From contig DYDB01000006.1 of NCBI GenBank assembly GCA_020718085.1, positions 8,510-72,509 on the forward strand: 64,000 bases of DNA. The letters are read 5' to 3'. This document shows, in pieces, positions 19,200 to 59,536 of this stretch. Origin of the DNA: Micavibrio sp. Lineage in GTDB: Bacteria > Patescibacteriota > Minisyncoccia > Moranbacterales > GCA-2747515. Under the pieces are notes generated by a model that was given only the letters and a program-made list of their open reading frames with translations, did no database searches and had not been told where the DNA came from. The position numbers and the translations under genes are program-made. The stretch's first letter is position 1, and each line of letters begins with the position of its first letter.

Positions 19200-19536
19200 G
19201 ATGCTTTATGTGACATGTTGTACGATCTCTTTTGCACAGACAGTATTTTGTATGTGTATATGTTTGTGTATTTTAGTGCCTGTGTGTGCAATTCAGTTAG
19301 CAAACCCCGCATATTTTTAACATAAGTTGTATGAGAATATGCGAGTCTATCTTTTGTTTGTCGTAACAGAAATTCACAATGTGGAAATCTATTTTTTTTA
19401 TATTGTATTTTTAAAGCACATAAAGCATACATTGGTTGTACCAAACAATATTTTTTTTGTCAAAGTTTTGCTGTGGATAACATATCGGTGTAAAATGGAA
19501 ATAGGGAAAGTTTAGATCCAGAATAATATAAGACAC

Positions 19537-20067
19537 ATGGCACAAAAAATTATTGCGCAAGATTTTTATAAAATACTAAAAGAAAATTTCGAACACGAAA
19601 GAGTGTGTGTAGATGTCCGTACAGAAGCAGAACATGATAGTGAGTGTATTGCAAATTCAATGAACATTCCTGTCGATCAGTTGCGTAGTCATCTAGATAT
19701 TCTGAGATCTTTTGAAAGCGTGTATGTATATTGTGCAAGTGGTAATCGATCAGCGATGGCATGTGAAATTCTTGAGAATAATGGCTTTAAAAAAGTATAT
19801 GATCTGCAAGATGGTCTAAATGGGTGGAAACTTGAAAAATTGCCAACAATTTGTAAAGAAAAAAATCGTTTACCGTTGATGCAGCAAGTACTAATTGTTG
19901 TGGGTGCGATCGTTTTTGGAAGTATTATTTTAGGGTATACGGTGTATGAGCTATTTTTTATCTTGCCGCTTCTTTTGAGCATTGGACTTTTGTATGCCGG
20001 TTTTAGTGGCAATTGTCTTTTGACAAAAGTTCTCATCAGAATGCCATGGAATCAACATAAAAAATAA
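19537..20067 (+). CDS. Rhodanese-domain sulfurtransferase fused to a C-terminal DUF2892 membrane domain (YgaP-like)
   Basis: Active-site loop 'YVYCASGNRSAMACEIL'. C-terminal TM region 'LPLLLSIGLLYAGFSGNCLLTKVLIRMPW'. Confidence 0.8.
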   Translation: MAQKIIAQDFYKILKENFEHERVCVDVRTEAEHDSECIANSMNIPVDQLRSHLDILRSFESVYVYCASGNRSAMACEILENNGFKKVYDLQDGLNGWKLEKLPTICKEKNRLPLMQQVLIVVGAIVFGSIILGYTVYELFFILPLLLSIGLLYAGFSGNCLLTKVLIRMPWNQHKK

Positions 20068-42979: not shown

Positions 42980-43027
42980 GGATAAAAAAACGCGCACTTT
43001 CATTTTTTTGGGAAGACTGTTACAGTA

Positions 43028-44113
43028 ATGATATGTAAAAATAGTATGATGCATAACGATATGATCCTCAAAAATCTCAATATTTATTTCTTTCTGGCAC
43101 TTCTGATAGGTGGTTCTATCGCGGGGTTTTTACTTGTCAAACCATTTCTTGGAGCTATATTCATTGCCGCGCTTTTTGCCGTACTTTTTAATAGACCTTA
43201 TGAGTATATAAGTGCAAAAATGCACAGTCCGGCGATCGCATCTGCGATCATGCTTTGTATTGTGGTCATCACGATCATTTTGCCGATCATATTTATTTCT
43301 GGATTGGTAGTTAGTGAAGTGTCGCAAGTGATTGCCGAGGCTACAATAGAAGATTCTGGTATGCGAAAATCTGTGGATGCGGTTGTAGAAAAGGTCTCAC
43401 AATTGCCATTTTCAGAAAAAGTGCTACATAACATAACACTGGACAGCATTAATGAAGAACAAGTTGTGAGAGTGTTAAAAAATACCGCATCATTCTTTCA
43501 AGCCGCATATCAAAGTGTTGTTAATGGTGTGATCGGATTTTTTGTGATGCTTTTTACGTTATTTTATTTCTTTATTGACGGACGACGTTTTGTGCACTAT
43601 GGAATGCAACTGAGTCCGCTACAGGATAGACATGAAGTGAAATTGATCCAGGAATTTATCTCCATGACACGCGCAACATTAAAAGGCACTGTTGTAATTG
43701 GATGTATTCAAGGAATCATCGGTGGTATTGCATTTGCAATTGCAGGAGTTGTTTCACCAATTTTTTGGATGGTTGTAATGATCGTCTTTAGTATTATTCC
43801 TGCTGTGGGAGCAGGTTTTGTGATCTTTCCTACAGCGATTGTGATGCTTCTCTTGGGGCATGTGTGGCAAGCGATCTTCCTGATCGTGGTCGGAACACTT
43901 GTATCAATTATTGACAATATTTTGCGACCAAAACTAGTCGGAAATGATACCCAGATGCATAGCTTGGCAGTATTCTTCGCAACGCTTGGCGGACTAAAGC
44001 TTTTTGGATTCATTGGATTTGTCGTTGGTCCGATCATTATGGCGCTCATGCTTGCAATGTGGAAGATCTACGCTGTTGAATTCAAAAAAGATCTGGAGCG
44101 ATTTAACGCATAG
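43028..44113 (+). CDS. AI-2E family transporter (UPF0118/PerM-like)
   Basis: 8 TM. C-terminal 'LVSIIDNILRPKLVGNDTQMHSLAVFFATLGGLKLFGFIGFVVGPIIMAL' is the AI-2E signature. Confidence 0.7.
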   Translation: MICKNSMMHNDMILKNLNIYFFLALLIGGSIAGFLLVKPFLGAIFIAALFAVLFNRPYEYISAKMHSPAIASAIMLCIVVITIILPIIFISGLVVSEVSQVIAEATIEDSGMRKSVDAVVEKVSQLPFSEKVLHNITLDSINEEQVVRVLKNTASFFQAAYQSVVNGVIGFFVMLFTLFYFFIDGRRFVHYGMQLSPLQDRHEVKLIQEFISMTRATLKGTVVIGCIQGIIGGIAFAIAGVVSPIFWMVVMIVFSIIPAVGAGFVIFPTAIVMLLLGHVWQAIFLIVVGTLVSIIDNILRPKLVGNDTQMHSLAVFFATLGGLKLFGFIGFVVGPIIMALMLAMWKIYAVEFKKDLERFNA

Positions 44114-44115
44114 CT

Positions 44116-44946
44116 ATGCAGGAATTTTGGCAACATCTTCCCGAATATTTTGATCCGATCGCATTTTCGATTGGAGAATTTTCGGTTTTTTGGTATTCGC
44201 TTATGTGGCTTACGGCATTTGCTGTGTGTTATGGCATGTTGGTATACCGTATGAGAAACAAAGAAATTGCATATGATAGGGAGTTAATTCAAGATGTCAT
44301 AACCAATGCACTTTTTGGTGCGTTGGTGGGAGGGCGATTGGGGTACGTGTTTTTCTATGATCTGTCATACTACGTTACAAATCCACTATCTATAATTTCT
44401 CCATACGACTTTAATTTGGGAGAATGGGTTGGCATCTATGGCATGAGCTATCATGGGGGTGTGATTGGTGTGGCGATTGCCATTTTTTTAATAGCACACA
44501 AAAAGAATATACGTGTGTTGAAGCTTTATGATCTCATAGTACCTGTTGTGCCATTCGGTTATATGTTCGGGCGTATTGGAAATTTTCTCAATCAGGAGTT
44601 AGTGGGGCGTATCACAACATCGCCTGTAGGCATGTATTTCAATGAGGAATCAGTACTGCGTCATCCATCGCAATTATATGAAGCTTTTTTCGAAGGCTTG
44701 GTATTATTTGGGATCATGTGGCAATTGCGCAATAAAGAGTTTTCGACAGGAACGCTTTCGGCGCTTTATCTCATGCTATATTCATTTTTTCGGTTTGTGA
44801 TCGAATTTTACCGTGCGCCTGATGAGCATCTTGGTCTCATTGTCGGCAATCTCACAATGGGACAGTTATTGTCGATTGGCGCCATCATTCTAAGTACGGG
44901 ATTTTTAATATATCGGAGAATGCATCGTGATCAAAAATTCTCATAA
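44116..44946 (+). CDS. lgt: Prolipoprotein diacylglyceryl transferase
   Basis: 'GGRLGYVFFY', 'YHGGVIG', Lgt signature 'GRIGNFLNQELVGR'. 276 aa. Confidence 0.9.
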   Translation: MQEFWQHLPEYFDPIAFSIGEFSVFWYSLMWLTAFAVCYGMLVYRMRNKEIAYDRELIQDVITNALFGALVGGRLGYVFFYDLSYYVTNPLSIISPYDFNLGEWVGIYGMSYHGGVIGVAIAIFLIAHKKNIRVLKLYDLIVPVVPFGYMFGRIGNFLNQELVGRITTSPVGMYFNEESVLRHPSQLYEAFFEGLVLFGIMWQLRNKEFSTGTLSALYLMLYSFFRFVIEFYRAPDEHLGLIVGNLTMGQLLSIGAIILSTGFLIYRRMHRDQKFS

Positions 44947-46436: not shown

Positions 46437-46481
46437 AATGTATCTCACACTTTTTTCAAAAATGTGGTATACTGTCTTGGT

Positions 46482-47795
46482 ATGGATATAGGTGAAGATT
46501 ATTCGCATCTATATGCGGGTGAAATAAAAAAACGGAAAAAGAAAATATATACAGACGGTTTAAAAGTTGTCGCGAAGAAACTCTGCGTTGATGCAGTGCG
46601 CGCACAAATGGGAGAACGTCATAATAATATTTCTGCCTTACTTCTACGGGGTGAGCGCACGAGTTTTTTTGTTACTGAAGATTCTGGTAAATATATCACT
46701 CCACTTGCACAACAAAAATACATGCAGAGCTATGAGCGCATCAACGCTGGGATGCGTTTTGATAGTGTGCATATTCGCTATCAAAAAAAATATACTGTCG
46801 GTGAAATGCATGTAAAACAATTGTCGGTTTATACAGATCGTTTCTTCAACACGGTGGAAAATTATCGCGCAGCCCTGCGTATTACGATGTCGCCTGTGCG
46901 TATGTACCAAGTTTCACTTGGAGGTGCGATGATATTTGGCATGGTTTCCATGAGCATGATCTATCAGAACCTTGGTCCCAGTGTATTTGCTGAGGGATTA
47001 GAAAATGTTATGAATAAAAATGATGATGCAAAAGAGGTTGTGCGCGTGATCGAAAATGTTGCCGATGAAAAAGAGCTTGTACAAGAAGAAAAAGTAGATG
47101 AAGGAAATGAAGATGTAAAAGAAGACGTGCAGGAAGAGATTAAGAGGACTGATGAAGTTTCTAAAGAAGAGGGACAGATCAAAAATGAAGATGAAAATAT
47201 ACAAAAGTCGGAACCGGTGATCATGTCGGATATTGTACCAAAGAATACGGAAGCGACTTCGCAGGAAAAACAAACGTCCGAAGAAAATAAAATGCAGGTT
47301 GTAACAAAATCAGTTGATAGTGTTGTCAAAAAGGAAGATGTGACAGAATCTGAAAGCATATCGGAAAAAACTCTTGAAGAATTGGCATATGAAACAGTAA
47401 AAGGACATCCAATTGAAAAGATGTTGCCATACATTCTCGAGCAGGATCCTGAAGTGGCAAAATATTTTATTGCCATTTCAAAACAAGAAAGCGGTTTTGG
47501 TGAACATGTGCCGGTTCTTAACGGACAGGATTGCTATAACTATCTTGGGTATCGTGGAAAGCGCAAGTTGATGGGAACGGGTGGACATACATGTTTTAAT
47601 AGCCGTAAGGATGCAGTGGAAACGATCAGTAAGCGTATCAAAACATTGATCTATGATCAGGATCAGAACACAGCACGAAAGCTTGTGGGTACATGGAAAT
47701 GTGGTAGCAAGGATTGTGCCGGACACTCAAAAGAGAGTGTCGATCGATGGGTGGGTTCTGTGGGGTCAACATATGATCAATTATCTGGAAAATGA
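46482..47795 (+). CDS. Membrane-anchored protein with an acidic E/K-rich linker and a C-terminal Cys-rich transglycosylase-like (QES motif) domain. Paralog of the 58718..59536 gene
   Basis: TM 'GGAMIFGMVSMSMIY'. ~130-aa low-complexity E/K region. C-terminal domain 'GHPIEKM...AISKQESGFGEHVP...DCYNYLGY...C...AVE...KR...WKCGSKDCAGHSKESVDRWVGSV'. The ORF track starts at the GTG at 46464. Confidence 0.55.
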   Translation: MDIGEDYSHLYAGEIKKRKKKIYTDGLKVVAKKLCVDAVRAQMGERHNNISALLLRGERTSFFVTEDSGKYITPLAQQKYMQSYERINAGMRFDSVHIRYQKKYTVGEMHVKQLSVYTDRFFNTVENYRAALRITMSPVRMYQVSLGGAMIFGMVSMSMIYQNLGPSVFAEGLENVMNKNDDAKEVVRVIENVADEKELVQEEKVDEGNEDVKEDVQEEIKRTDEVSKEEGQIKNEDENIQKSEPVIMSDIVPKNTEATSQEKQTSEENKMQVVTKSVDSVVKKEDVTESESISEKTLEELAYETVKGHPIEKMLPYILEQDPEVAKYFIAISKQESGFGEHVPVLNGQDCYNYLGYRGKRKLMGTGGHTCFNSRKDAVETISKRIKTLIYDQDQNTARKLVGTWKCGSKDCAGHSKESVDRWVGSVGSTYDQLSGK

Positions 47796-47916
47796 TCATG
47801 ACTCTGTGAAAAGGCGTAATAAACGCCTTTTTTGTGTAGTTGCTAAGAACTTGTCAGATATTATTTTACTGGTAATATTGTAATTGTTTTGATTTTTATA
47901 AAAAATAATTTGCATA

Positions 47917-48099
47917 ATAAGTAACTGTCTAGTATCTCACCGTCATAAAATGATTTGTCGATTGAAATGCAAAAATTTCGGCTGCAAAACATTCAGATCT
48001 CGTCATGTTACCTATGGGTAGCGTTCTCTCGATCTTCATGTTTTTCGCTCGAAATTTTAGAATTTCAATTCGACATGAGATATTAGACAGTTACTAAGC
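47917..48099. repeat. Pair of 21-bp inverted repeats (taagtaactgtctagtatctc ... gagatattagacagttactaa, 19/21 complementary) flanking a ~133-bp AT-rich segment immediately upstream of the Nuo-like operon. Candidate MITE-like element or large regulatory hairpin
   Basis: Read directly from the sequence: left arm 47917-47940, right arm 48074-48099. Confidence 0.45.
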
Positions 48100-48105
48100 A
48101 TTTCT

Positions 48106-49137
48106 ATGGAAAAGAGCAAAAGGATGTTGATCGCACTCAATAAAAAGCATTCCGAAATGTTTCAAAGTCAGAGGTTGGAACGGGAGTTGTATCTTTCACA
48201 GCATCCTACAAATGTGATCGTTTTTAAATGTATGGATGGACGCATTCACATGCCGACAGTAACACGTACTCCGCTTGGTATTATGCAACCATTTCGCAAC
48301 ATCGGAGGAAGGTTTGATTTAGGATGGCCGATGCTGAATGAGTCTTTTGATCAACATATCAAAAAAGCGGTGTCGAAAGGTAATCGTACACTCGTTTTGG
48401 TTACATATCATTTTTCCGCCGGTGATGAACATCGTGGTTGTGCAGGATTTAATTATGATTGCGAAGAATCGAAAAGATTCACAGAAAACTTTCGCAAACA
48501 AATTTTGCGTACATATGGAAAAGATAATGGTGTTGTCTACCCGATCCTTGTGGGCTTGGAAACTGATAAAGATGCGCTGATATTTCATGGGGAGCGTGGA
48601 CGCATTTTGGATGTGTCACAAATCGTTGATGCATCATTTGAATCATTATTTGTGTCATTTCATAAATTATATCCATCAATGCCGGAACGTATCCTACATG
48701 ATCTGATCCCATTGGTACAGGGTAATGTGCAATGTATTAAAGAAACAATGAACATGGGCAAGCCGCTCAAGCAAATGGTGCATGGTGAATGGATATTAGC
48801 TGTTGGAAAAGGTTTTGATTGGTTACATACGCCGAACATCGCTCTTATCGTAGGACCGTATGATCCGAATATTGGAGAACCGATCAAAAAAGCGGTAGGG
48901 ATCATCAAATCAAATTTACATACAAAAAAGACGAAAGACGGGTTTGTTCTCTTGTCATCAGCAGTATATTCTGACGCTGCGGAAAAAAACCGAGCAAAAG
49001 AACGCACGACATATCTTAGCAATTTAACACAAGAGATCATTGCGCAGCATTATGCGGATATGATTGCACGTACACATGTAATGTCTGTGATCATCAATGC
49101 ACAAACAATGGAAATGGAAATGATCAATCGAAAATAA
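48106..49137 (+). CDS. Beta-carbonic-anhydrase-like protein (internally duplicated; N-terminal half retains the zinc-site motif), first gene of the Nuo/Ehr-like cluster
   Basis: N-terminal half: 'KCMDGRI' (C-x-D-x-R), 'FRNIGG' (beta-CA RNxGN-like), 'YHFSAGDEHRGCAGF' (H-x-x-C-[AG]). The C-terminal half repeats the fold with ligands lost ('VQCIKETMNMG', 'FVLLSSAVYSDAAE'). Confidence 0.45.
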   Translation: MEKSKRMLIALNKKHSEMFQSQRLERELYLSQHPTNVIVFKCMDGRIHMPTVTRTPLGIMQPFRNIGGRFDLGWPMLNESFDQHIKKAVSKGNRTLVLVTYHFSAGDEHRGCAGFNYDCEESKRFTENFRKQILRTYGKDNGVVYPILVGLETDKDALIFHGERGRILDVSQIVDASFESLFVSFHKLYPSMPERILHDLIPLVQGNVQCIKETMNMGKPLKQMVHGEWILAVGKGFDWLHTPNIALIVGPYDPNIGEPIKKAVGIIKSNLHTKKTKDGFVLLSSAVYSDAAEKNRAKERTTYLSNLTQEIIAQHYADMIARTHVMSVIINAQTMEMEMINRK

Positions 49138-49241
49138 GATATTTGACAGGCACACCGGAGGAGAGTACCATATAGTCTATAAAAAAGCACAAATTGGCAT
49201 CAAAGAGTGACATGCCATGTTTTATAGTGTGAAAAAACTTT

Positions 49242-49787
49242 ATGAAAATTTTTAAGCTGATCTACCTATTGGTTTTTGGAAAAAAAGTAACGGAAAAACG
49301 AAAAAAATTCGAAGAAAAAAACCAGAGCGGAAAAGAATTTGATGTCATTGGTGCAGAGGTGCAACAAATCATCAAAAAATTGTACAATGGTCGATCCTTA
49401 CGCATTCGCGCTGTTGATGCTGGTTCAACCAATGCGGAAGAAATCGAGCTGACAGCATTAAATAATGCATATTATGACATTGATCGCTTTGGCTTGAGTT
49501 TTGTTGCATCGCCGCGTCATGCGGACATGCTCTTTGTAACAGGTCCGGTTACGAGAAATTTGGAAAACGCTCTTCGTACGACATATGAGGCTGCACCACA
49601 GCCGTGTATTGTGGTTGCTGTTGGAGATGGTGCATGTACGGGGGGAATATGGAAAGATTCATATGCTGTAGTTGGTGCCGTGGATCAGGTGATACCAGTG
49701 CATGTGCGTATTCCGGGAGACCCGCCAACCCCAACAGAGATCTTGCGGGGCATATTAACAGCGCTGAAAACAAATAACTCACAATAA
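49242..49787 (+). CDS. NuoB/HycG-like small subunit lacking 3 of 4 N2 [4Fe-4S] cysteine ligands
   Basis: 'SFVASPRHADMLFVTGPVTRNLENALRTTYEAAPQPCIVVAVGDGACTGG...PVHVRIPGDPPTPTE' aligns with NuoB 'ASPRQADVMIVAG...GACA.SGG...PGCPPRPE'. The CCxxE motif is replaced by 'DAGSTNAEEIE' and 'PGCPP' has become 'PGDPP'. Confidence 0.8.
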   Translation: MKIFKLIYLLVFGKKVTEKRKKFEEKNQSGKEFDVIGAEVQQIIKKLYNGRSLRIRAVDAGSTNAEEIELTALNNAYYDIDRFGLSFVASPRHADMLFVTGPVTRNLENALRTTYEAAPQPCIVVAVGDGACTGGIWKDSYAVVGAVDQVIPVHVRIPGDPPTPTEILRGILTALKTNNSQ

Positions 49788-49796
49788 TTCATATTT

Positions 49797-51797
49797 ATGT
49801 TAGGACAATATATTGTTTTTGGGATCATATTCTATTTTTTGAGCTTATTTCTATCTGGCGTTCTGGTGTTTATTGACCGTACGTTCATCAATGCAGCATG
49901 GCTTTTCGTTGTCTCTAACATTGTGGGATTTATTTCGGGTGTCTTGTATTTTGTTGGTTTTTTTGGATATAATATTACAATCGCGCATTTTGATTGGTTT
50001 TTTCAATTTTCACCACATATCGCATCTCTTTCTGCGATCTTTTTTACATTGATCAGCGGGGTTTCCGCGGTTGTGGGTGTGTATAGTGTGCGATATTTGA
50101 CCATCTACGAAAAAACGTATGATCCGCGGTCTGTACTGTTTTTGATGGCATTTTTTGTATTGGGCATGCAGGGAGTGATTGTCGCCAATAATGCATTTTC
50201 ATTTTTATTCTTTTGGGAATTGATGTCCATCTCATCATTTTTTCTTGTTCTTGTTGATCGTACGCAAAAATCAATTTCAGCAGCGTTTTTATATTTCATC
50301 ATGACGCATCTGGGAGCGTCAGCAATCTTGGGTGGATTCTTGATCTTGGGAAACGGTTCTTTTCTTTTTGAACTTTCAGGCATGTATGATGCAGCACAGA
50401 CATTGTCACCAGCGCTTCGCAATACGGCATTTCTTCTTTTCATTTTTGGATTTGGTTCAAAGGCTGGACTCGTACCATTTCACATCTGGCTCCCGGAGGC
50501 GCATCCTCAGGCACCAAGTAATATTTCTGCACTGATGAGCGGGCTGATGTTGAAGATCGCAATATACGGTTTTACAATGATCATACTCGCAATGGGGCAG
50601 ATGCCCGTATGGATCGCTCTGATCGTGTTATTTTTGGGAATGTTGTCCAGTATCGTGGGAGCACTTTATGCTGTTGTCGAGAGGGATATGAAACGTGCAT
50701 TTGCATACAGCAGTATTGAAAACATGGGAATTATCTTTTCCATGTTTGGACTGGCGTTGTATTTCTTTGCACAAGATGCTTCGATGGCTACATTAATGAT
50801 CGGAGTGAGCATAATTGCATTTGCTCTATTTCATGCAGTAAGTCACGCGCTTTTTAAAACGGCGCTCTTTCTTAGCAGTGGTGTTGTGATCAGTCGTACG
50901 CATACGAAGAGTCTTGATGCGATGGGAGGACTTGCAAAAATCATGCCGATTTTCACTGTTGGCTTTCTTGTGGTGACATTGAGCGCTTTGCCAATCCCTC
51001 CATTTGGTACATTTTACGGAGAATGGGGTTTTGTGCAGAATATCATTTTTGCAATGCGAGATATGATCATGGAACCAAAGACAATTGTGTTGCTACTTGG
51101 CACATTGATCGTGACAGGTCTGGTAAGTGGTTTGGCAATTTTTGCGATGATCCGTATTTTTAGCTTGTCGATGCTCGGGTTATCACATGATCCACGAAGA
51201 CCACATCGTGATGAAAGAATGGATCATCTTCTCATTATGCCAATTATCGTTTTGGGCATTACTGTTCTTGTGTGTGGTTTTTTTGCGAGCACGATCGTTG
51301 ATACATTGACTTTTGCGGTATATACAACTGGTGGATATGCGCGAGATATAACAGTAAATATAGCGCCGCATATGGACATGATGGTTGGTGTGGGGACAGT
51401 TTTGTGTTTTTTTGTGGGAGCGGCAATTTATATGTGGATCAAAAAAAATACACGAATGCGTGCATACCATACATGGGATTGTGGACAACCGATTGACGCG
51501 ACAATGCAATACAGTGCAACTGCGTTTTGTGCCCCGATCAGATTTTTTTTCCTTACATTTATCGGGCGTAAAAAGGTCATGTCTTCACAACCAATCATAC
51601 AATCGAACCCGTGGATCGTAAAGAATACATTTGCGTTATCCATACGATCGAAATGGAGTGATATATTCTATGATCCAATTGCAAAAATTCTGCTTTTCAT
51701 TGCTGATCGGATTCGTTTTGTACAAAATGGACGTATTCAATATTACATTCTTTTTCTCTTTCTTGCGTTAATTCTTACTCTTATATTTGTGTTATGA
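49797..51797 (+). CDS. NuoL/MrpA/HyfB-like antiporter-type membrane subunit (666 aa)
   Basis: 'GLVPFHIWLPEAHPQAPSNISALMSG' is the WLPDAxxxxPTPVSAL antiporter-module motif. About 16-18 TM. Confidence 0.85.
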   Translation: MLGQYIVFGIIFYFLSLFLSGVLVFIDRTFINAAWLFVVSNIVGFISGVLYFVGFFGYNITIAHFDWFFQFSPHIASLSAIFFTLISGVSAVVGVYSVRYLTIYEKTYDPRSVLFLMAFFVLGMQGVIVANNAFSFLFFWELMSISSFFLVLVDRTQKSISAAFLYFIMTHLGASAILGGFLILGNGSFLFELSGMYDAAQTLSPALRNTAFLLFIFGFGSKAGLVPFHIWLPEAHPQAPSNISALMSGLMLKIAIYGFTMIILAMGQMPVWIALIVLFLGMLSSIVGALYAVVERDMKRAFAYSSIENMGIIFSMFGLALYFFAQDASMATLMIGVSIIAFALFHAVSHALFKTALFLSSGVVISRTHTKSLDAMGGLAKIMPIFTVGFLVVTLSALPIPPFGTFYGEWGFVQNIIFAMRDMIMEPKTIVLLLGTLIVTGLVSGLAIFAMIRIFSLSMLGLSHDPRRPHRDERMDHLLIMPIIVLGITVLVCGFFASTIVDTLTFAVYTTGGYARDITVNIAPHMDMMVGVGTVLCFFVGAAIYMWIKKNTRMRAYHTWDCGQPIDATMQYSATAFCAPIRFFFLTFIGRKKVMSSQPIIQSNPWIVKNTFALSIRSKWSDIFYDPIAKILLFIADRIRFVQNGRIQYYILFLFLALILTLIFVL

Positions 51798-53395
51798 ATT
51801 CCTTAATAGCCATTTCTATACAGATCATATTTGTTTTGTTGGTTGCACCGTTTGCATCTGGTATGGTTCGGTTTGTAAAAGCGCGCTTACAAGGAAGGCA
51901 TGGTGCGTCACCATTTCTTCCATATATAACATTATTAACTTTGATGCGTAAAGAGATGGTTGTATCATCTGCAACATCGTGGATATTTCACGTTGTGCCA
52001 TTTGTGGTTTTGGGAAGCACATTTGCTTTAGCGTGTATTGTGCCAACGATCTTTGTAGGAACATCAGTTGCAAATGTGAGTGATTTTTTGGTTGTGGCAG
52101 GCATACTGATCATTGGCTCAGTTTTCTTGGTCATGGGTGGTTTGGATACGGGAAGTGCGTTCGGTGGTATGGGCTCAAGTCGTGAGATGACAATTGCCGC
52201 GTTGTTGGAACCAGTGATCATTATGGTTTTTGCGACACTGAGTTTTGTAACGGGAACGTCAACAATTGATGGTATGTTACAACAACAATTGAGTTTTGCG
52301 GATCCGTATTTGTTTTTAATTATTGGCGCTCTTGGACTTGTTGCATTGGCGGAAAACGCACGATATCCTGTAGATAATCCTGCAACACATTTGGAATTAA
52401 CAATGGTACATGAGGCAATGATCTTGGAATATTCCGGTGCGTATCTGGCTTTGTTGGAGTATGCAGCAGCAATTAAGTTAACAATCTTTTCTCTCCTTAT
52501 TGCAAACTTTGCTTTTCCTCAGACGATGCTCAGTGGTTCTTTGGAGGGTGGTATCGCAGCTGTTGGTGTGGGAATGGTTTATGCCACAGTAAAGATCATT
52601 GTAGTGATGATCGGTTTGGCTTTTGTAGAATCTTTACTGGTAAAAATGCGATTCTATCGTATGTCTGAATATTTTTCTATTGCTTTTGTTGTAGCATTGT
52701 TGGGCATGATCGTTGCTCTTTTTTCCCAACATGCCGGAGTATCGATGCAATATCATGTGCTTTTCTCGCTGTGTACGATCATTTGCATCGTCTTATTATT
52801 TGGACGCGTGCGTCTCAAGGCTATGTTGCGATACTATGCAATCTCTTCTTTTGCGATTGCAGGTATCGCGTGGGGATTATTACCACTTGTAGTGGAGGAA
52901 GAAAGGATTCATTTGTGGATATTTGCTCTTTTCACAATTGTGACAAAAACATTCGCAGTACCATATGTGATCAATCATGCGGGGCATGTGAAGAAAAGTC
53001 TCACAAACCTCCCATCGTTTTTACGACCGGGGAAAAGTTATTTTCTAGCGGTTATTCTTCTTATGATCACATACTTTGTTTTGAATGAAGTGTCTATTAC
53101 GGGTCTCATTAAATGGAATTCTTTACTTTATGCATCTGTTGCCTCAATTGTTCTTGGCATTGCTCTGATGATCATTAAGAGAAATATTTTTTCGCAAATC
53201 ATCGGATTATTGATCATAGAAAATGGAATCGCAATTTTTGTGTTGGCAACAGTTGGTTCATTGCCAGTGATGATCGAATTTGGCATTTTTGCCGTGACAG
53301 TGGCAACTGCATACATTTTGGCATTGTTGAGTGCACAGATCAATGAACTGTATGGTAGTACTGATACGGAAGACCTGCGAGAACTGATCGAGTAA
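51794..53395 (+). CDS. Fusion of a NuoH/HycD-like subunit with a NuoK/HyfE-like C-terminal module (533 aa)
   Basis: N-terminal 'KARLQGRHGASPFLPYITLLTLMRKE' matches NuoH/HycD 'R.QxRxGPxxLQPxxDxLKLxxKE'. C-terminal 'IIGLLIIENGIAIFVLATVGSLPVMIEFGIFAVTVATAYIL' is NuoK/HyfE-like with a membrane-embedded Glu. The start overlaps the upstream stop (ATGA). Confidence 0.7.
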   Translation: MNSLIAISIQIIFVLLVAPFASGMVRFVKARLQGRHGASPFLPYITLLTLMRKEMVVSSATSWIFHVVPFVVLGSTFALACIVPTIFVGTSVANVSDFLVVAGILIIGSVFLVMGGLDTGSAFGGMGSSREMTIAALLEPVIIMVFATLSFVTGTSTIDGMLQQQLSFADPYLFLIIGALGLVALAENARYPVDNPATHLELTMVHEAMILEYSGAYLALLEYAAAIKLTIFSLLIANFAFPQTMLSGSLEGGIAAVGVGMVYATVKIIVVMIGLAFVESLLVKMRFYRMSEYFSIAFVVALLGMIVALFSQHAGVSMQYHVLFSLCTIICIVLLFGRVRLKAMLRYYAISSFAIAGIAWGLLPLVVEEERIHLWIFALFTIVTKTFAVPYVINHAGHVKKSLTNLPSFLRPGKSYFLAVILLMITYFVLNEVSITGLIKWNSLLYASVASIVLGIALMIIKRNIFSQIIGLLIIENGIAIFVLATVGSLPVMIEFGIFAVTVATAYILALLSAQINELYGSTDTEDLRELIE

Positions 53396-53414
53396 TTTCT
53401 TATCTTATTTTATT

Positions 53415-54890
53415 ATGATCATTATATTATTAACATTGTTCATTCTCACAGCAATTGGTGCGTGGTTTGGACGTAATGCAAAAAATGTGCGCACTGTCAG
53501 TGTATTTTTAGCCGCGTTAAGTAGCATTATGCTCGTACTGGCTGCATGGTCACCAGTAATGTATGGACAGATCGCGCGATATGGATCATGGTGGACGATT
53601 GATGGTTTTTCGGGTCTCATGATCATATTGATCGCATGCGTATACATGGCCACTGTTGCGATTAGCGTGCGATATATCGGTCATGAATTGGCAAGTCAAA
53701 TCATTTCTTTCAATCAGTATCGGTTGTATTTTACATTACTTCCGATCTTTGCTTTGTGTATGGTGATCACTGTACTTACCAATAACTCTCTGGTGTTATG
53801 GCTTGCATTGGAAGGAACAACACTTTTTTCAACATTTCTTGTAGGTCTGTACCGTAAAAAAACAAGCATTGAAGCAGCATGGAAATACATGATCCTTTGC
53901 TCAACGGGCATTAGTATTGGTTTAGTTGGTATTTTGTTATTGAGCTATGGTGTGCATGACAGCGAAATTCGTGGAGGTGAAATGTTCTTGATCAGCACAT
54001 TAGTGGAACATGCACAACTGATCCCAGAAAATATTATAAAACTTTCTTTCGTCCTGCTCTTTATTGGTTTTGGAACAAAGGTGGGTCTGGTTCCAATGCA
54101 TACATGGTTACCCGATGCACATAGTAAAGCACCATCTCCAATTTCTGCTATTTTTTCGGCGGTATTGCTCAATGTTGCACTTTATGCAATTATCCGTTTC
54201 AAATACATTGCGGATGTATCCTTTGGAAATGCAGAATGGACGAGTCAGTTATTTGTGATATTTGGATGCATCTCAGTATTTTTGGCTGCACTTATGATGC
54301 TCATTCAACAAAATTATAAACGCATGTTGGCATATTCCAGTATTGAACACATGGGACTTATACTTTTTGCGATCGGACTTTCTCCATTTGGCGCAATTGC
54401 TGCTGTGATGCATATGATCGGACACACATTTGCTAAGTCAGCACTTTTTTTTGGTGCTGGTGAGATCCTGATCCGTTGGAAAACGACAAAGATCCCAAAA
54501 ATTGCCAATATGTATGTGCAAGCGCCGTATACAAGCATTCTTTTTATCATTGCAATCTTGGGCATTATTGCAATCCCACCATCAGCACTTTTTGTGAGTG
54601 AGTACGGTATGTTTGCGCAGGCGATCATCATGTATCCAAAAACTACATTAGCACTTTTTGTTGCTCTGGCTGTGATCGCTTATGCGATGCTCTCTCTCAC
54701 GATCACGATGGTCTTTCATGAGGATGAGAGTAAGATAAATGGAAGTATCAAGAAGGAGTCATGGAATATTACACATACAGTGATCGTGATCGAACTGGTC
54801 ATAATTGTGATCTTTGCAATGTGGTTTACAACAACACAGGGTTCTGACGTGATCAACAATATCGTTAATAGTTTTTTGTTTATAAAATAA
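53415..54890 (+). CDS. NuoM/NuoN/MrpD/HyfF-like antiporter-type membrane subunit
   Basis: 'GLVPMHTWLPDAHSKAPSPISAIFSAVLLNVALYAIIRF' is the canonical antiporter-module motif. 491 aa, ~14 TM. Confidence 0.85.
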   Translation: MIIILLTLFILTAIGAWFGRNAKNVRTVSVFLAALSSIMLVLAAWSPVMYGQIARYGSWWTIDGFSGLMIILIACVYMATVAISVRYIGHELASQIISFNQYRLYFTLLPIFALCMVITVLTNNSLVLWLALEGTTLFSTFLVGLYRKKTSIEAAWKYMILCSTGISIGLVGILLLSYGVHDSEIRGGEMFLISTLVEHAQLIPENIIKLSFVLLFIGFGTKVGLVPMHTWLPDAHSKAPSPISAIFSAVLLNVALYAIIRFKYIADVSFGNAEWTSQLFVIFGCISVFLAALMMLIQQNYKRMLAYSSIEHMGLILFAIGLSPFGAIAAVMHMIGHTFAKSALFFGAGEILIRWKTTKIPKIANMYVQAPYTSILFIIAILGIIAIPPSALFVSEYGMFAQAIIMYPKTTLALFVALAVIAYAMLSLTITMVFHEDESKINGSIKKESWNITHTVIVIELVIIVIFAMWFTTTQGSDVINNIVNSFLFIK

Positions 54891-54908
54891 GTGGGATGCA
54901 TGTGATCT

Positions 54909-56489
54909 ATGATCATGCACAATAAGAATATGGATATCAAAGAAATCAGCAATCGTTTTCAAAACATGACAATAGTTTCTGTGGATGAAAGTCTCATGTG
55001 TGTTCGTGTCTCACGTGAGGATCTTGCACATGTCATCACATCTCTTGTAGAAGAAGGTCAGGCGCAACTATCATCTCTTTTTGCCACAGACGATCGACAA
55101 GAACAAGGTGTATTTGGTGTACATGCGATTTGCAGCATATACGATGTACCTCAGCGAATGATGATCTCTATTTCCATTCCTGCTGATGATCCACAATATC
55201 CATCGATCACACAAACGGTTATGGCTGCGCATTGGTATGAACGTTATATGAGGGATATGTTTGGTATTGAACCTGTTGGACATCCAGATTTGCGACGATT
55301 GGTGCATCATGAAAATGTGCCAGAAAATATTCATCCACTCAGAAAAGATTTTGCATGGAATACGAAAATGCCAAAAGCAAACATCGCATATCCGATGCAC
55401 CATATAAAGGGAGAGGGTATATTTGAAATTCCTGTCGGACCGATTCATGCAGGTATCATTGAGCCGGGACACTTTCGTTTCAATGTGGCAGGGGAACGCA
55501 TTCTTACACTAGAGGGCAAGTTATTTTTTACACACAAGGGTGTAGAAAAATTGGTGGAAAACAAGAAACCTATTGATGCGTTACCCTTTATTGAAAGATT
55601 GTCTGGAGACATGAGTGCTGCACATGCACTTGCATATGTGGAGGCTGTGGAAAAGATCGGGCAATGTCATGTATCAAAACGAGCACAGATGTTGCGTGCG
55701 ATCATCACGGAATGTGAGCGTATCACAATGCATATACATGACCTTGCAAATATCGGCGGCATGGGAACAGGATACAGTTTTATTGCGGCGAATGGATTTC
55801 GTATCAAAGAACGTATGATGCGTTTGTCAGATGAGCTATGTGGTAATCGTTTTTGGCGGGGCGTTATCACAATTGGCGGCATGACAAGGGATTGGACTAC
55901 AGATGAACTTGATCATGTAGTTGCGACCTCTTATGAAGCATGGCAAGAAATTGCACATATTGTATCTTTGGCATTGGACAGTGAAGGATTCCTGGATCGT
56001 TTACAGTATACGGGGGAATTGCCATACGAGGCGGCGCAGGCGTTTGGGGCTGTTGGATTACCTGCACGTGCTTCTGGTGTGGATCGTGATGTGCGCAGAG
56101 ATTATCCATATGCATCATATACAGACTTTCCGGTAACGGTGATCAAAAAGAAAAGTAGCGATGTGTTTGCGCGATACCGTATGCGTATCTTAGAAATTGA
56201 ACAATCTATTGCGTTGATTAAAACACTTGTAGCAGAAATTGCGGACGGAGAGGTTATGACATCATGTGAACCGAAAAATGGCCTTGCTATTGGTTCAGTG
56301 GAGTCATGGAGGGGTGAAATTATTTGTGTGGTACGCATAAATAATGGCGTGATCGACAGATGTTTTCCACGTGATCCGTCTTTTTGTAATTGGGCGCTTT
56401 TTGGTATTATGGGGCCTGGTAATATTGTGCCGGATTTTCCACTAATTAATAAAAGTTTAAATCTCTCCTATTCGGGAACGGATCTATAG
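54909..56489 (+). CDS. Fused NuoC-like + NuoD/[NiFe]-hydrogenase-large-subunit-like protein lacking all four NiFe-binding cysteines
   Basis: N-terminal NuoC-like 'AAHWYERYMRDMFGIEPVGHPDLRRL'. The large-subunit region where hydrogenases carry RxCGxCxxxH reads 'ERLSGDMSAAHALAYVEAVE'. The C-terminal 'VESWRGEI...RDPSFCNWALFGIM...SLNLSYSGTDL' lacks the DPCxxCxxH motif. Confidence 0.8.
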   Translation: MIMHNKNMDIKEISNRFQNMTIVSVDESLMCVRVSREDLAHVITSLVEEGQAQLSSLFATDDRQEQGVFGVHAICSIYDVPQRMMISISIPADDPQYPSITQTVMAAHWYERYMRDMFGIEPVGHPDLRRLVHHENVPENIHPLRKDFAWNTKMPKANIAYPMHHIKGEGIFEIPVGPIHAGIIEPGHFRFNVAGERILTLEGKLFFTHKGVEKLVENKKPIDALPFIERLSGDMSAAHALAYVEAVEKIGQCHVSKRAQMLRAIITECERITMHIHDLANIGGMGTGYSFIAANGFRIKERMMRLSDELCGNRFWRGVITIGGMTRDWTTDELDHVVATSYEAWQEIAHIVSLALDSEGFLDRLQYTGELPYEAAQAFGAVGLPARASGVDRDVRRDYPYASYTDFPVTVIKKKSSDVFARYRMRILEIEQSIALIKTLVAEIADGEVMTSCEPKNGLAIGSVESWRGEIICVVRINNGVIDRCFPRDPSFCNWALFGIMGPGNIVPDFPLINKSLNLSYSGTDL

Positions 56490-56584
56490 TTTTTCGTGCG
56501 TAAGCACATTAGTAGGGCGTGTATAGTTCTTTATCATGGCAATAAGTAGTTCATTAAAATATATACAACAGCGAGGATTGATTC

Positions 56585-57496
56585 ATGTATGATCAAAATG
56601 GAAAAAAAATTGTGGCTACGGTACCTTTTTTTGATGGTGAATGTAATGCAATTGTTGCAATGCCGATCAGTTTTAATTTTATGGATGAAATGATTGGTTG
56701 TACACGAGTTGCATTGGGTATGAAGAGATTTGATCTCTTGGGTATCCCTGGATTTTCCAAGAGAGTATCTCTTGATAGTAAAACTGTTTTGGATACGATC
56801 ACACTCGCAGTTACAAAACACCTTGTTCGTGACATTGTGATATTTCAGCACATGGATTTTCACAATGATGGTAATTCGACACGATTTGTGAGTAGGCTTG
56901 ATGAGGACTATTATCATAAAAGGATCCTTATTGATGCAGCACAGAAGATCAAAACGCTATATCCAGAAATAAATGTGGCATTGATCTATGCAAGGATTGT
57001 AAAAAGCAAGAGCGAGATTGAGTTTTCCAAGATCTTCCAAAGTGGTAATGAAGAAGTGTGTCTGCGCACTCCGTTTCTTTTTGGGAAGGTGAATACATGT
57101 GGAAATACGGTTATACAATGTTTGGATTATCGATTCAGGGCAGAAACACGACAATGTATTCAAAATGCCTTTGGCGTCGAACATTTCAATATCATCGGTC
57201 TTCCTGGATCTACAAAATCGTTTTTGGAGGGAAGCATGACTGCGTGGAAGGGAATTAAAATGTCCTATGAAAAACATGGTTGTCGGAGGTTTTTCATCGT
57301 TCATCATGAGGATTGTGGTGCATATGGAAGTTCCAGATCTTTTGTCAATCCTGAAAAGGAAGAAGCCTTTCACAATGTACAATTGTGTGCAATGAGAGAT
57401 CGACTTGTAAAAATGTACACAGATGTTGACGTTATACTGATCTATGCAAAGCTCATTGGCACAACAAATCGAATGATCCAATTCATTGTTGTATGA
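56585..57496 (+). CDS. Beta-carbonic-anhydrase-like protein (internally duplicated pseudo-dimer; C-terminal half retains the complete zinc-site motif), last gene of the cluster
   Basis: C-terminal half: 'VIQCLDYRFRAE' (C-x-D-x-R), 'FNIIGLPGSTKSF', 'FFIVHHEDCGAYG' (H-x-x-C-G-A, cf. beta-CA HSDCGA/HTNCGG). N-terminal half is the degenerate repeat: 'AIVAMPISFNFMDE', 'FDLLGIPGFSKRV', 'IVIFQHMDFHNDG'. Confidence 0.5.
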   Translation: MYDQNGKKIVATVPFFDGECNAIVAMPISFNFMDEMIGCTRVALGMKRFDLLGIPGFSKRVSLDSKTVLDTITLAVTKHLVRDIVIFQHMDFHNDGNSTRFVSRLDEDYYHKRILIDAAQKIKTLYPEINVALIYARIVKSKSEIEFSKIFQSGNEEVCLRTPFLFGKVNTCGNTVIQCLDYRFRAETRQCIQNAFGVEHFNIIGLPGSTKSFLEGSMTAWKGIKMSYEKHGCRRFFIVHHEDCGAYGSSRSFVNPEKEEAFHNVQLCAMRDRLVKMYTDVDVILIYAKLIGTTNRMIQFIVV

Positions 57497-57519
57497 TACA
57501 TGTGTTACAATAGGAGATC

Positions 57520-57550
57520 TCTAATTTAGAGATCTCCTATCTTCATATAT
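57520..57550. promoter_or_regulatory. Perfect 13-bp inverted repeat ATAGGAGATCTCT-aattt-AGAGATCTCCTAT: terminator-like hairpin or operator
   Basis: Located 24 bp after the 57496 stop. Not followed by a T-run. A TATAAT-like box follows at ~57565. Confidence 0.4.
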
Positions 57551-57633
57551 TCTTATTTGATCGCATGCGGTATAATCAATAGGGTATGAAGATGTTGCGA
57601 TGGTTTTTTGTATGAATTTAAACAATACGTATT

Positions 57634-58098
57634 ATGTTTACAATTGGTGCATTCGGTGTGATCATTAACAAAAATAATGAAGTTCTTTTGTGTCACCGGC
57701 GAGATAAGGACATCTGGGATATTCCTGGTGGTATGGTGGAACGCGGTGAATCTCCATGGGAGGGTGCTGTGAGAGAGATAAAAGAAGAGGTTGGGCTTGA
57801 TATTGAGATCGTGCGATTGGTTGGTGTGTATAGCAAAAAAAAGAAAAATGATGTGATATTTTCTTTTTTATGCAAAATTTGTGGTGGTGAGATCTCGTTA
57901 ACAGATGAGGCAGATGAGATCGCGTATTTTTCCATAGATGATCTGCCAAAAAATTTATCACCAAAACATGTAGAGCGAATTATGGATGCGACACAAGGTG
58001 CTGCACGCACTCTTTTGAAAATACAAAGTGATTTATCCGGATGGGATTTAGTGCAACGTGCATATAAAAAAGAAAAAAGTGATATAGGTTCTATATGA
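57634..58098 (+). CDS. NUDIX hydrolase
   Basis: Nudix box 'GGMVERGESPWEGAVREIKEEVGLDIEI' (GX5EX7REUXEEXGU). Confidence 0.9.
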   Translation: MFTIGAFGVIINKNNEVLLCHRRDKDIWDIPGGMVERGESPWEGAVREIKEEVGLDIEIVRLVGVYSKKKKNDVIFSFLCKICGGEISLTDEADEIAYFSIDDLPKNLSPKHVERIMDATQGAARTLLKIQSDLSGWDLVQRAYKKEKSDIGSI

Positions 58099-58400
58099 GC
58101 AAAAATCATCGCAGCGGTGGAAAAATGGGTGGAAGGCACACAACGGTAATTGATGCGTCAAAACCGATTATTGATCATCTTCTCAAAAATCCTTATGTTA
58201 CAAATATTATTGCAGGGCGCATTAAAACTGGGATTGGAGCTGCTCCTCAAAGACTTAAATTACGCGAGGAATCGGGATGCTTGTTGATCACTGTTCGTGG
58301 TAGCGCAAGTATGCAAGAAATACGAGTCTTCTCTACAGAAATGCAGAAAGTTATTAATGATCTGCAAAATGAGTTCACGAAACTATGCAAGAAAAAATGA
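58095..58400 (+). CDS. Hypothetical protein (101 aa). Its start overlaps the NUDIX stop (ATGA)
   Basis: Translationally coupled ORF. No family recognised. Confidence 0.4.
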   Translation: MSKNHRSGGKMGGRHTTVIDASKPIIDHLLKNPYVTNIIAGRIKTGIGAAPQRLKLREESGCLLITVRGSASMQEIRVFSTEMQKVINDLQNEFTKLCKKK

Positions 58401-58717
58401 TCTGTTATGGATAAAATATTCGTCACGGGTGCTTTTTTTGATGGTACATGATTGCAAGATCCATTAAAATGGTATAAATATTTGATGGATGCTTTAGCAA
58501 TATTTTATTCGTGACAATGTCCATTTGGAGGTGTTCTTGAAGAGGTGAAAAAATAGAAAAAACCATTAATTCAAGCCATTTTTTGGCATTTGTGCATAAC
58601 TTTTCATTGACTTTTTCGCTCATTTTAGTATACTTGGTTCTGCGTGTGTTTTTTATAGACACACTTCTTTGTTTCTTAGCAAGGAGCGAAGTGGGGGTTT
58701 TATTCGTAAAACAACTT

Positions 58718-59536
58718 ATGGTTATTAATGAAGAACCATCACTGATCAAGCGTCTACGTGTGGGGACGCTCAAGATGCTTAAAGCATCACTACATACAGT
58801 TCGTTTATATACAACAAAATATGCATATTTTGTGCTCACAGGTGTTACATTCATGATTGCCGGAAGTTTTTTTGTGTTTAATCACAGCACGGAGGCAATT
58901 GGTGATGAAATGCCTATCGCAGATCAAGAATTGCAACAGTACACAGCATGTGTTTTTAGCAAAAGTCTTATGGACACAGATGCAAATCAAGGCATAACTG
59001 TGGGTATTGATGAGGAATGTAAAAAGGCTAGTGCAAATGATGTGTTCGTTGAAACGGAAGAGGATTGGTTTGAGCAAGAGTTGAATGATATGCTCGCCGG
59101 TCACCCAATGGAGATCATGGCAGGATCGATCGCACAACAGGATAAAAAGGTTGCCGGTTTGATCGTGGGTATTGCAAGACAAGAAAGCCAATGGGGTATG
59201 CATGCACCATCAAAGGGCGGCGTGGATTGTTATAATTATTGGGGCTATAAATCTACAGGTACACGTGGGCAATCAATGGGATATGCGTGCTTTGGATCAC
59301 CTCAGGAAGCTGTGGAGGTTGTGGCAAAACGATTGGATCATTTTGTGTACGATGCACATCGTGATACACCAGCAAAGATGGTAACGCCATGGAAATGTGG
59401 CAATAGTTGCGCATCACATTCGCCGGAAAGTGTGCAAAGATGGGTGGGTACAGTGAGTACATATTTCAATCAAATTGTTGCATTGGATGTGCAAGACACA
59501 CAAATACAAAATACATTATTATCTTTCAATAAATAG
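58718..59536 (+). CDS. Membrane-anchored Cys-rich transglycosylase-like (QES motif) domain protein. Paralog of the 46482..47795 gene
   Basis: TM 'YAYFVLTGVTFMIAGSFFVF'. C-terminal domain 'GHPMEIM...IARQESQWGMHAP...DCYNYWGY...C...AVE...KR...WKCGNSCASHSPESVQRWVGTV' aligns along its length with the 46482 protein. The start is uncertain: the ORF track begins at a TTG at 58583, and the first in-frame ATG is 58718. Confidence 0.5.
   Translation: MVINEEPSLIKRLRVGTLKMLKASLHTVRLYTTKYAYFVLTGVTFMIAGSFFVFNHSTEAIGDEMPIADQELQQYTACVFSKSLMDTDANQGITVGIDEECKKASANDVFVETEEDWFEQELNDMLAGHPMEIMAGSIAQQDKKVAGLIVGIARQESQWGMHAPSKGGVDCYNYWGYKSTGTRGQSMGYACFGSPQEAVEVVAKRLDHFVYDAHRDTPAKMVTPWKCGNSCASHSPESVQRWVGTVSTYFNQIVALDVQDTQIQNTLLSFNK

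Follow-up and report, generated by a model that had tools for sequence, protein, structure and literature searches.

This report describes a seven-gene cluster in a 64-kb stretch of bacterial DNA (contig DYDB01000006.1; the whole stretch is called the window from here on), in which a membrane complex of the Ehr family lies between two predicted carbonic anhydrases (CAs). The cluster covers positions 48106-57496 of the + strand, where all seven open reading frames (ORFs) claimed by the first-pass annotation are indeed present. According to the ORF listing they are co-directional and tightly packed, with intergenic gaps of, in order, 104, 9, -4 (an overlap), 19, 18, and 95 bp, and they are set off from their surroundings by gaps of 310 bp upstream and 137 bp downstream. 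The genes are as follows (aa, amino acids).

48106..49137, + strand: CA1, predicted CsoSCA2-type beta-CA, 343 aa (Pfam CsoSCA_cat PF20686, 29.6 bits at a cutoff of 21.5)
49242..49787, + strand: NuoB/HyfI/HycG-like small subunit, 181 aa (Oxidored_q6, PF01058, E=2.5e-24)
49797..51797, + strand: HyfB/NuoL-like antiporter-type subunit, 666 aa (NCBIfam hydrogenase 4 subunit B, E=6.5e-133; PF00361)
51794..53395, + strand: fusion of NuoH/HyfC and HyfE/NuoK, 533 aa (NADHdh PF00146 at residues 9-307; NF008556, hydrogenase 4 membrane subunit, at 327-531; PF00420 at 444-531)
53415..54890, + strand: HyfF/NuoM-like antiporter-type subunit, 491 aa (hydrogenase 4 subunit F, E=5e-99; PF00361)
54909..56489, + strand: NuoC+NuoD/HyfG/HycE-like large subunit, 526 aa (Complex1_30kDa PF00329, Complex1_49kDa PF00346, and NiFeSe_Hases PF00374)
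56585..57496, + strand: CA2, predicted tandem beta-CA, 303 aa (Pro_CA_2 PF20393, E=1.6e-19, two stretches)

Judged by these profile matches, the family assignments of all seven products are far beyond chance. The closest homologs of the window's proteins are found in Candidatus Moranbacteria/Parcubacteria, which belong to the Candidate Phyla Radiation (CPR, Patescibacteria), and the genes flanking the cluster are housekeeping genes. An Rfam scan of the window returned zero matches.

On sequence grounds, the membrane module is an Ehr complex of the CPR clade. PF01058, PF00146, PF00420, and two copies of PF00361 occur together in one co-directional cluster, and the large subunit shows the substitutions that define Ehr. 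Its best solved relative is HycE (7z0s_E, E=3e-69), and in the alignment RLSGDMSAAH and NLSYSGTD stand where HycE has RVCGICGFAH and DPCYSCTD, meaning that CGIC has become SGDM, CYSC has become SYSG, and all four NiFe cysteines are replaced. The true hydrogenases recovered in the same search (L092, L141-L144, L153, and L158; such numbers denote the compared loci) keep CG[VA]C and CYSC. The NuoB-like subunit aligns with HycG and MbhJ (E~1e-27) and carries VDAGSTNAEEIE and IPGDPP where these bear their Cys motifs; three of the four Fe-S cysteines are gone and only C132 is left. Neither the ORF list nor the profile searches revealed a NuoI/HycF/HyfA-type ferredoxin gene in the cluster. With the NiFe ligands, the Fe-S ligands, and the ferredoxin gene all missing, the complex cannot perform the redox chemistry of its relatives. 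A functional group-4 [NiFe] hydrogenase (Hyf, Hyc, Mbh, or Ech) was rejected because both the NiFe CxxC pairs and the proximal Fe-S ligands are absent.

The two antiporter-type subunits have kept their conduction machinery. Aligned to MbhH (E=3e-30), MbsH, and NuoL, the HyfF-like subunit retains the Glu of transmembrane helix (TM) 5, the Lys residues of TM7 and TM8, the His-His-Lys residues, and the TM12 Glu. In the HyfB-like subunit the corresponding channel motifs can be read straight from the sequence (FFWELMS, GFGSKAGLVPFHIWLPEAH, DMKRAFAYSS, HAVSHALFKTALF, and FYGEWG). The first-pass annotation had described a central complex with antiporter-type subunits and no redox cofactor ligands, and both halves of that description agree with the alignments to HycE, HycG, and MbhJ and with the canonical channel residues. 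The Ehr genes are intact and 61-79% identical over >120 CPR protein clusters, from which it follows that the complex is under selection and not vestigial. Taken from its sequence features, the complex plausibly translocates ions.

The name Ehr reportedly stems from Marreiros et al. in 2013. When 94 large subunits were surveyed by tree and by motif, that of the window grouped with other CPR sequences. The SGD and NLSYSG motifs are general to the family, being found in ~80 Ehr large subunits. The window thus shares with known Ehr a group-4-like large subunit without NiFe cysteines, a NuoB-like and a NuoH-like subunit, and two PF00361 subunits. The CPR clade differs from other Ehr clades by the loss of the NuoB Fe-S ligands, by having NuoB at the front, and by the NuoH-HyfE/NuoK fusion, the two parts of which are separate genes in betaproteobacterial Ehr. 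In NuoB, the CPR clade as a whole has the same altered motifs as the window, whereas nearly all other sampled Ehr clades have CNGC...CPP; the absence of the N2-type [4Fe-4S] small-subunit ligands is thus a clade-specific difference. These small-subunit ligands are not known to belong to the original Ehr definition. A second NuoB-first clade (L093, L099, L100, L103, L107, and L112) has IPGNPP or IPGDPP and has likewise lost the last Fe-S Cys; in L100 the Ehr genes lie behind the ATP synthase operon, and neither L100 nor L107 has an adjacent CA. A monophyletic CPR Ehr clade without cysteines was described by Jaffe et al. (2020, PMC7304191), who gave its function as unknown, and the function of Ehr is also described as unknown in PMC10284858 (2023) and PMC6349859.

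The first of the two flanking proteins, CA1, is by sequence and model a CsoSCA2-type zinc carbonic anhydrase, predicted to be cytoplasmic. Its AlphaFold2 (AF2) model (pLDDT 93.3, pTM 0.91) was compared with known structures using Foldseek, and the sole strong matches are to CsoSCA (8thm, 9g4t, and 2fgy; E~1e-16, TMq 0.72-0.75), extending over the whole length (~350 columns). The beta-CA fold suspected for the 343-aa protein is thereby borne out, and it consists of two domains, one catalytic and the other a defunct duplicate. In the profile-to-PDB alignment, C42, D44, R46, H102, and C112 superpose on C173, D175, R177, H242, and C253 of CsoSCA, and H226 corresponds to H397. The zinc ligands (C42, H102, and C112), the D44-R46 dyad, and H226 are kept in all 87 family members compared, which come from CPR, Nitrospira, and the Beta-, Gamma-, and Deltaproteobacteria. 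The zinc spacing is that of CsoSCA, namely Cys-His-Cys with H-x9-C plus the Asp-Arg dyad. The first-pass annotation had assigned a zinc-site pattern to both flanking proteins; the sites are intact in both, but the His ligand of CA1 is H102 rather than H109 of the apparent H-x-x-C, which is not conserved across the 87 homologs.

CA1 is devoid of the N-terminal RuBisCO-binding domain of CsoSCA, as the match to the latter begins at the catalytic domain, and no RuBisCO, carboxylase, or carboxysome (cso/cbb) genes are present within the 64-kb window. Together, the missing domain and the missing cso/cbb genes identify CA1 as CsoSCA2 and not as CsoSCA proper. The term CsoSCA2 was introduced for non-carboxysomal CsoSCA homologs in PMC9164163 (2022, 'Atypical Carboxysome Loci: JEEPs or Junk?'), where they are reported to be widespread (including Moranbacteria, Falkowbacteria, and Nitrospira) and flagged as unstudied. 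Like CA1, they are compact proteins of ~340 aa with an active and a defunct domain and all active-site residues. That paper takes the genes as 'csoSCA alone' and draws no link to Ehr, DabA, SulP, or ATP synthase.

CA2, at the other end of the cluster, is by sequence a tandem-duplicated Pro_CA_2 beta-CA and is likewise predicted to be cytoplasmic. It has the beta-CA fold and the C-x-D-x-R ... H-x-x-C zinc motif (C179-x-D181-x-R183 ... H241-x-x-C244), which is invariant in its homologs. This site is confined to the C-terminal half; the N-terminal half is degenerate. Tandem proteins of this kind are rare, forming ~20 clusters at 50% identity, and single-domain relatives of ~145 aa are common. Both CAs had been called duplicated, which is correct insofar as each is internally two-part. 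They are not, however, duplicates of one another, since they belong to separate beta-CA subfamilies (CsoSCA2 and tandem Pro_CA_2).

The pairing of CA and Ehr extends beyond the window. Nine CPR Ehr loci (L089, L090, and L169-L175) were found through the large subunit alone and are hence unbiased with respect to CA. In six of them a CA gene is directly adjacent: CsoSCA2 upstream (L169, L175) or downstream (L171, L173), CA2 downstream (L090), or a gamma-CA downstream (L172). When all CPR loci are considered, CsoSCA2 lies upstream of Ehr in the window and in L001, L010, L012, L014, L169, and L175; tandem Pro_CA_2 fills the CA slot in the window, L086, L087, and L090, and a Cam/CcmM-type gamma-CA does so in L172 and L014. 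The gamma-CA of L172 keeps its catalytic motifs and matches CcmM (NCBIfam, E=1.6e-46; PDB 3kwc, E=1.3e-32) and Cam (E=5e-29). Its counterpart in L014, 57% identical to it, follows NuoCD, and the resulting order CsoSCA2-Ehr-gamma-CA reproduces the bracket of the window with another second CA. As a ~1000-gene genome holds one or two CA genes at most, the adjacency of CA and Ehr is far beyond chance. Moreover, CAs of three unrelated types have come to lie at the border of Ehr on no fewer than four separate occasions, which indicates that CA activity itself is selected there.

The exact arrangement is more restricted. L175, the locus most closely related to the window (its large subunit is 79% identical), shares the flanking genes and CsoSCA2-Ehr with it, but CA2 is missing there. 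The seven-gene form is thus lineage-specific, and CA genes come and go at this slot. As to the expectation of conserved synteny, CA-Ehr linkage recurs in CPR and in other phyla, and the complete seven-gene order was seen only in the window's own genome. Among the loci ascertained through CA1 in 80 species-representative genomes, CsoSCA2 stands beside Ehr in 12 (four Moranbacteria, co-directional and in the order of the window, and eight Betaproteobacteria, tail-to-tail); several of the betaproteobacterial convergent pairs are only 7-60 bp apart. In the same 80 loci, a DabA operon lies near CsoSCA2 in 10, including those of Thiodiazotropha and Rhodocyclaceae, and a SulP anion transporter is found immediately upstream of CsoSCA2 in 9-10. 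Ehr is directly upstream in two of the three CA2-ascertained loci, both times behind or inside the ATP synthase operon. Farther away from CPR, a CA is absent from ~70 of 80 Ehr loci, which share no dominant neighbour; the Nitrospira-like loci described below are the exception. Clustering of the neighbours of 80 metagenome Ehr loci ascertained by the large subunit yielded no dominant partner either (<=8 of 80 share a family), from which we conclude that the CA link is clade-specific and not universal for Ehr.

Some of these neighbourhoods deserve a separate description. In Nitrospira-like contigs (L094, positions 4500-19557, and L102), an Ehr that has its Fe-S ligands is followed by SulP, CsoSCA2, a sigma54 response regulator, and a PAS/CHASE3 histidine kinase, and SulP lies directly 5' of CsoSCA2 in at least nine Nitrospira loci. 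Candidatus Thiodiazotropha endolucinida (L059, 11387-20766) encodes a DabA of 1123 aa (PF10070, E=4.5e-229) with four PF00361 subunits, convergent with CsoSCA2; similar modules in L044, L052, L053, L068, and L076 are, like this one, much larger than the described DabAB or DabABC. In L087 (11101-12042), L172 (12532-13458), L086 (18552-19559), and L011 (~11150-11626), either the CA slot or the atp operon is immediately followed by a DUF4349 protein. Two candidate CAs were discarded. A 185-aa ORF after NuoCD in L170 (11640-12197) has C-G-D-G-D and H-Y-P-C strings, but no Pfam or NCBIfam match and an hhalign probability of <2% to both CA profiles, and a faint CA2-like tblastn match after NuoCD in L100 has no supporting ORF, the next gene being on the opposite strand.

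A second recurrent partner is the F-type ATP synthase. Ehr lies directly behind atpC or within the atp operon in 9 of 16 CPR Ehr loci (L086, L087, L089, L090, and L170-L174), at a distance of tens to a few hundred bp from atpC (11 bp in L171 and L173), and two further CPR loci (L010 and L012) read atp-CsoSCA2-Ehr. In eight CPR loci (L010-L013, L015, L016, L018, and L019), the F-ATP synthase operon ends 40-130 bp before CsoSCA2. This synteny connects the module with the one ion-motive machine that is obvious in the cell. In L086 (Moraniibacteriota), the Ehr-CA2 block is located inside the operon, which has two differing copies of the a, c, and b subunits (780-2501 and 11439-13040; 32-49% identical) that might reflect two ion specificities or a hybrid rotor.

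How could these parts work together? CPR bacteria lack respiratory chains and have kept their F-ATP synthases. A fermentative cell of this kind would hold its H+ (or Na+) gradient by means of the F-type ATP synthase/ATPase, and Ehr, with its two antiporter-like channel subunits, NuoH/K connecting module, and cytoplasmic NuoB-NuoCD cap, would use or convert that gradient independently of redox chemistry. The CAs would run CO2 + H2O <-> HCO3- + H+ on the cytoplasmic side of Ehr, whose channels would exchange the proton released or consumed. CO2 that enters the cell or arises within it would in this way become bicarbonate in step with ion flow, the same logic as in DabAB and cyanobacterial NDH-1MS/CupA. 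We put forward such an ion-gradient-coupled CO2/HCO3-/H+ module with DAB-like logic as the best-supported, though tentative, reading, to which we give slightly less than an even chance. By analogy, a vectorial mechanism of the DAB or Cup kind is plausible; that the genes are co-transcribed, that CA and Ehr are coupled physically or kinetically, which ion is used, and in which direction the reaction runs are inferences. In autotrophs, it looks as if Ehr, Dab, and SulP beside CsoSCA2 were alternatives for one functional slot.

Several observations weigh against this proposal. No ATP synthase genes are found within the 64 kb of the window, and three of the nine unbiased loci (L089, L174, and L170) have no recognisable CA beside Ehr. 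Solitary CsoSCA2, CA2, and Cam-type CAs exist (L002-L007, L081, and L088). The swapping of unrelated CA folds argues against a specific docking interface, and together with the frequent stand-alone CAs it suggests that the CAs contribute a generic activity and are not dedicated subunits docked to Ehr. Neither CA1 nor CA2 has a signal peptide or a hydrophobic, membrane-inserting segment. CA1 also keeps the invariant H226 (H397 in CsoSCA, the free proton shuttle or bicarbonate H-bond residue), where DabA has Leu. A scan of positions 47400-58300 found fewer promoter-like sites than in shuffled sequences and no convincing terminators at the ends of the cluster; the best sigma70-like match of the region (TTGACA-17-TACCAT, 49143-49171), in a scan that as a whole falls below the shuffle expectation, sits inside the 104-bp gap between CA1 and NuoB, and CA1 may accordingly be transcribed separately. 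Finally, we know of no autotrophs among the CPR bacteria, and it is not obvious why they would need a carbon-concentrating mechanism.

Part of this evidence fits a different function, namely proton supply and pH homeostasis. Here, Ehr would be an Mrp-like antiporter beside an ATP-hydrolysing F-ATPase, and soluble CAs would supply or buffer H+, with HCO3- as mobile counter-ion and without any energy-coupled (out-of-equilibrium) hydration of CO2. An analogous role is known from animal acid-secreting cells, where CA II serves H+-ATPases; to our knowledge, there is no bacterial precedent. This would explain why CsoSCA2 follows atpC even in loci without Ehr (L011, L013, L015, L016, L018, and L019), why three unrelated CA classes are interchangeable, and why the CAs look autonomous, i.e., with H226 kept, no membrane segments, and often solitary. 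The Mrp/antiporter-type subunits of Ehr with their intact channel residues suit it too, as does a P-type cation ATPase 5 kb upstream in the window. What it leaves unexplained is the retention and strong conservation of the NuoB-NuoCD-NuoH cap (SGD and NLSYSG are invariant across clades), a part that Mrp antiporters do without, as well as the occurrence of CsoSCA2 next to DabA and SulP in autotrophs, a setting indicative of inorganic-carbon acquisition. All in all, we regard proton supply as the main rival, serious but rather unlikely.

The two genes might also have no functional link at all. Housekeeping CA genes would then have been inserted repeatedly at operon borders of streamlined CPR genomes, or the beta-CA-fold proteins would act on carbonyl sulfide (COS) or carbon disulfide (CS2), whose hydrolases have the beta-CA fold too, or play a regulatory part, with the role of Ehr unrelated or vestigial. 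CA genes are indeed gained and lost fast, as the missing CA2 in L175 illustrates, and both the third of unbiased CPR loci and the ~70 of 80 non-CPR loci without CA fit coincidence. However, chance insertion hardly explains why three CA classes ended up precisely at the border of Ehr at least four times independently, nor does it account for the independently conserved, convergent CA-Ehr pairs of Betaproteobacteria. The strict conservation of CA-type catalytic residues, including the Asp-Arg dyad, disfavours another substrate, and the intact Ehr ORFs with the high identity given above disfavour a vestigial complex, so that we hold an absence of any link to be improbable. More doubtful still is the energy-conserving direction, in which CO2/HCO3-/H+ chemistry in or close to the former NiFe/quinone pocket would drive ion export through Ehr as a non-redox pump and the adjacent ATP synthase would make ATP: the tight Ehr-ATP synthase operon linkage and the conservation of the ex-catalytic pocket motifs despite the loss of the metals agree with it, and proton-consuming chemistry at this pocket powers MBH and complex I, but the CO2/HCO3- disequilibrium yields little free energy on a rough estimate, soluble CAs would dissipate it, and no metal or substrate ligands are identifiable in the pocket, which makes it very improbable.

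The proposed gradient-coupled module resembles several known systems without belonging to any of them. One of these is DAB, which combines a CsoSCA-lineage, beta-CA-fold zinc protein with a NuoL-like proton-conducting subunit and needs no redox input. A recent preprint (10.64898/2026.05.01.722082) reports CsoSCA as the closest structural relative of DabA and DabB as NuoL-like. The window differs from it: CA1 is without the membrane 'finger' of DabA and has the above-mentioned His in place of Leu, and where DAB has a single DabB, the window has a five-protein Hyf-like module with a peripheral cap. Membership of DAB was rejected on subunit content, as none of the seven proteins matches PF10070/DUF2309, which the true DabA of L059 does. 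In cyanobacteria, NDH-1MS with CupA performs vectorial CO2 hydration (PMC6981117). NDH-1MS/MS' (NdhD3/F3-CupA/CupS) and the window have in common a complex-I-family membrane arm and a zinc CO2-hydrating protein, but the former is driven by ferredoxin/plastoquinone redox chemistry through a full Fe-S chain, whereas the window's complex has no redox cofactors, and the fold of CupA is unrelated to that of beta-CA or gamma-CA. The cluster does not belong to this group, with no match to the Cup/Chp (ChpY/ChpX) family among its products and with the Fe-S and NiFe ligands and a NuoI-like gene absent.

The closest solved relatives are Hyf (hydrogenase-4/FHL-2, a formate hydrogenlyase), Hyc (FHL-1), and the membrane-bound hydrogenase (MBH) of P. 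furiosus, and the gene set of the window corresponds to HyfB, C, E, F, G, and I. Compared with these, it is without a NiFe site, an Fe-S cluster, the HyfA/HyfH/HycF ferredoxins, a formate dehydrogenase partner, and nearby hyp/maturation genes. The Mrp cation/proton antiporter was also considered and rejected: the cluster resembles it only in its MrpA/D-like (PF00361) and NuoK-like parts, NuoB, NuoCD, and NuoH are present, and hydrogenase-4 models fit better than Mrp models. A precedent for CA-fold proteins on a complex-I-family arm is the gamma-CA domain of plant and protist mitochondrial complex I, to be compared with the gamma-CA beside Ehr in L172 and L014. The CPR gamma-CA, however, is a Cam/CcmM-type protein whose similarity to the plant complex-I subunit is only weak (6x89_G2, E~1e-5); moreover, the plant domain is attached to its complex, whereas the CPR case is known from gene adjacency and the window itself has beta-CAs.

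Ehr, its CPR clade, CsoSCA2, Pro_CA_2, and Cam-type CA are all known already. In the searchable full-text literature (subscription-only papers being outside its scope), the association of Ehr with CA, the swapping of CA classes in the slot beside it, and the embedding in the ATP synthase operon are undescribed. The statement in the first-pass annotation that this is not a described system therefore applies to the CA-Ehr linkage, which is apparently new, and not to the parts, which have been reported before (Ehr including the CPR clade in PMC7304191, CsoSCA2 in PMC9164163).

The significance of this partnership lies in the wide distribution of its components. Ehr is spread over many phyla, such as CPR, Nitrospira, Betaproteobacteria, Margulisbacteria, and Melainabacteria, and its pairing with CA, plus the SulP- and DabA-type inorganic-carbon systems in autotrophs, gives it a concrete, testable function in CO2/bicarbonate/proton handling. 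It equally provides a context for CsoSCA2, widespread and flagged as unstudied (PMC9164163). With this pairing, Ehr-CA would join NDH-1MS and DAB as a complex-I-family module partnered with CA. If the proposal holds, the ultra-small CPR cells would manage their ion gradients, pH, and CO2 to a central extent through a complex-I relative without cofactors and a CA, both built into the atp operon, and a gradient-driven CO2 trap would be a compact new candidate for engineering inorganic-carbon uptake. One may go further and suppose that Ehr family-wide comprises non-redox ion translocators working on CO2/HCO3-/H+, which would make it, next to NDH-1MS and DAB, the third inorganic-carbon system derived from complex I and one of far wider distribution; in CPR it would be hard-wired to the F-ATP synthase operon as the core of an otherwise unexplained membrane energetics and might even run as a chemically driven pump feeding ATP synthesis; this wider generalisation we deem quite unlikely.

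Lastly, the surroundings of the cluster show some features of their own. It is bracketed by two paralogs of 443 aa (46464-47795) and 317 aa (58583-59536), which are 38% identical over the C-terminal 176 aa (E=5e-38) and to which no Pfam family could be assigned. The former ends 310 bp upstream of CA1, and the latter sits past a NUDIX and a DUF2103 gene; the same pair brackets the cluster in L175 and L083. Within 40286-44946, the gene of the 897-aa P-type (type II) cation ATPase is succeeded by those of an AI-2E-family transporter and LGT. In L169 this AI-2E and LGT pair also stands directly upstream of CsoSCA2-Ehr, and in L088 of a solitary CA2. Elsewhere, the window encodes two repeat proteins of very large size: one of 1419 aa at 75-4334, which combines Kelch repeats with a Peptidase_S74 (endosialidase chaperone) domain, and one of 1218 aa at 20433-24089, which has 13 beta-propeller repeats of the DUF5122 family.

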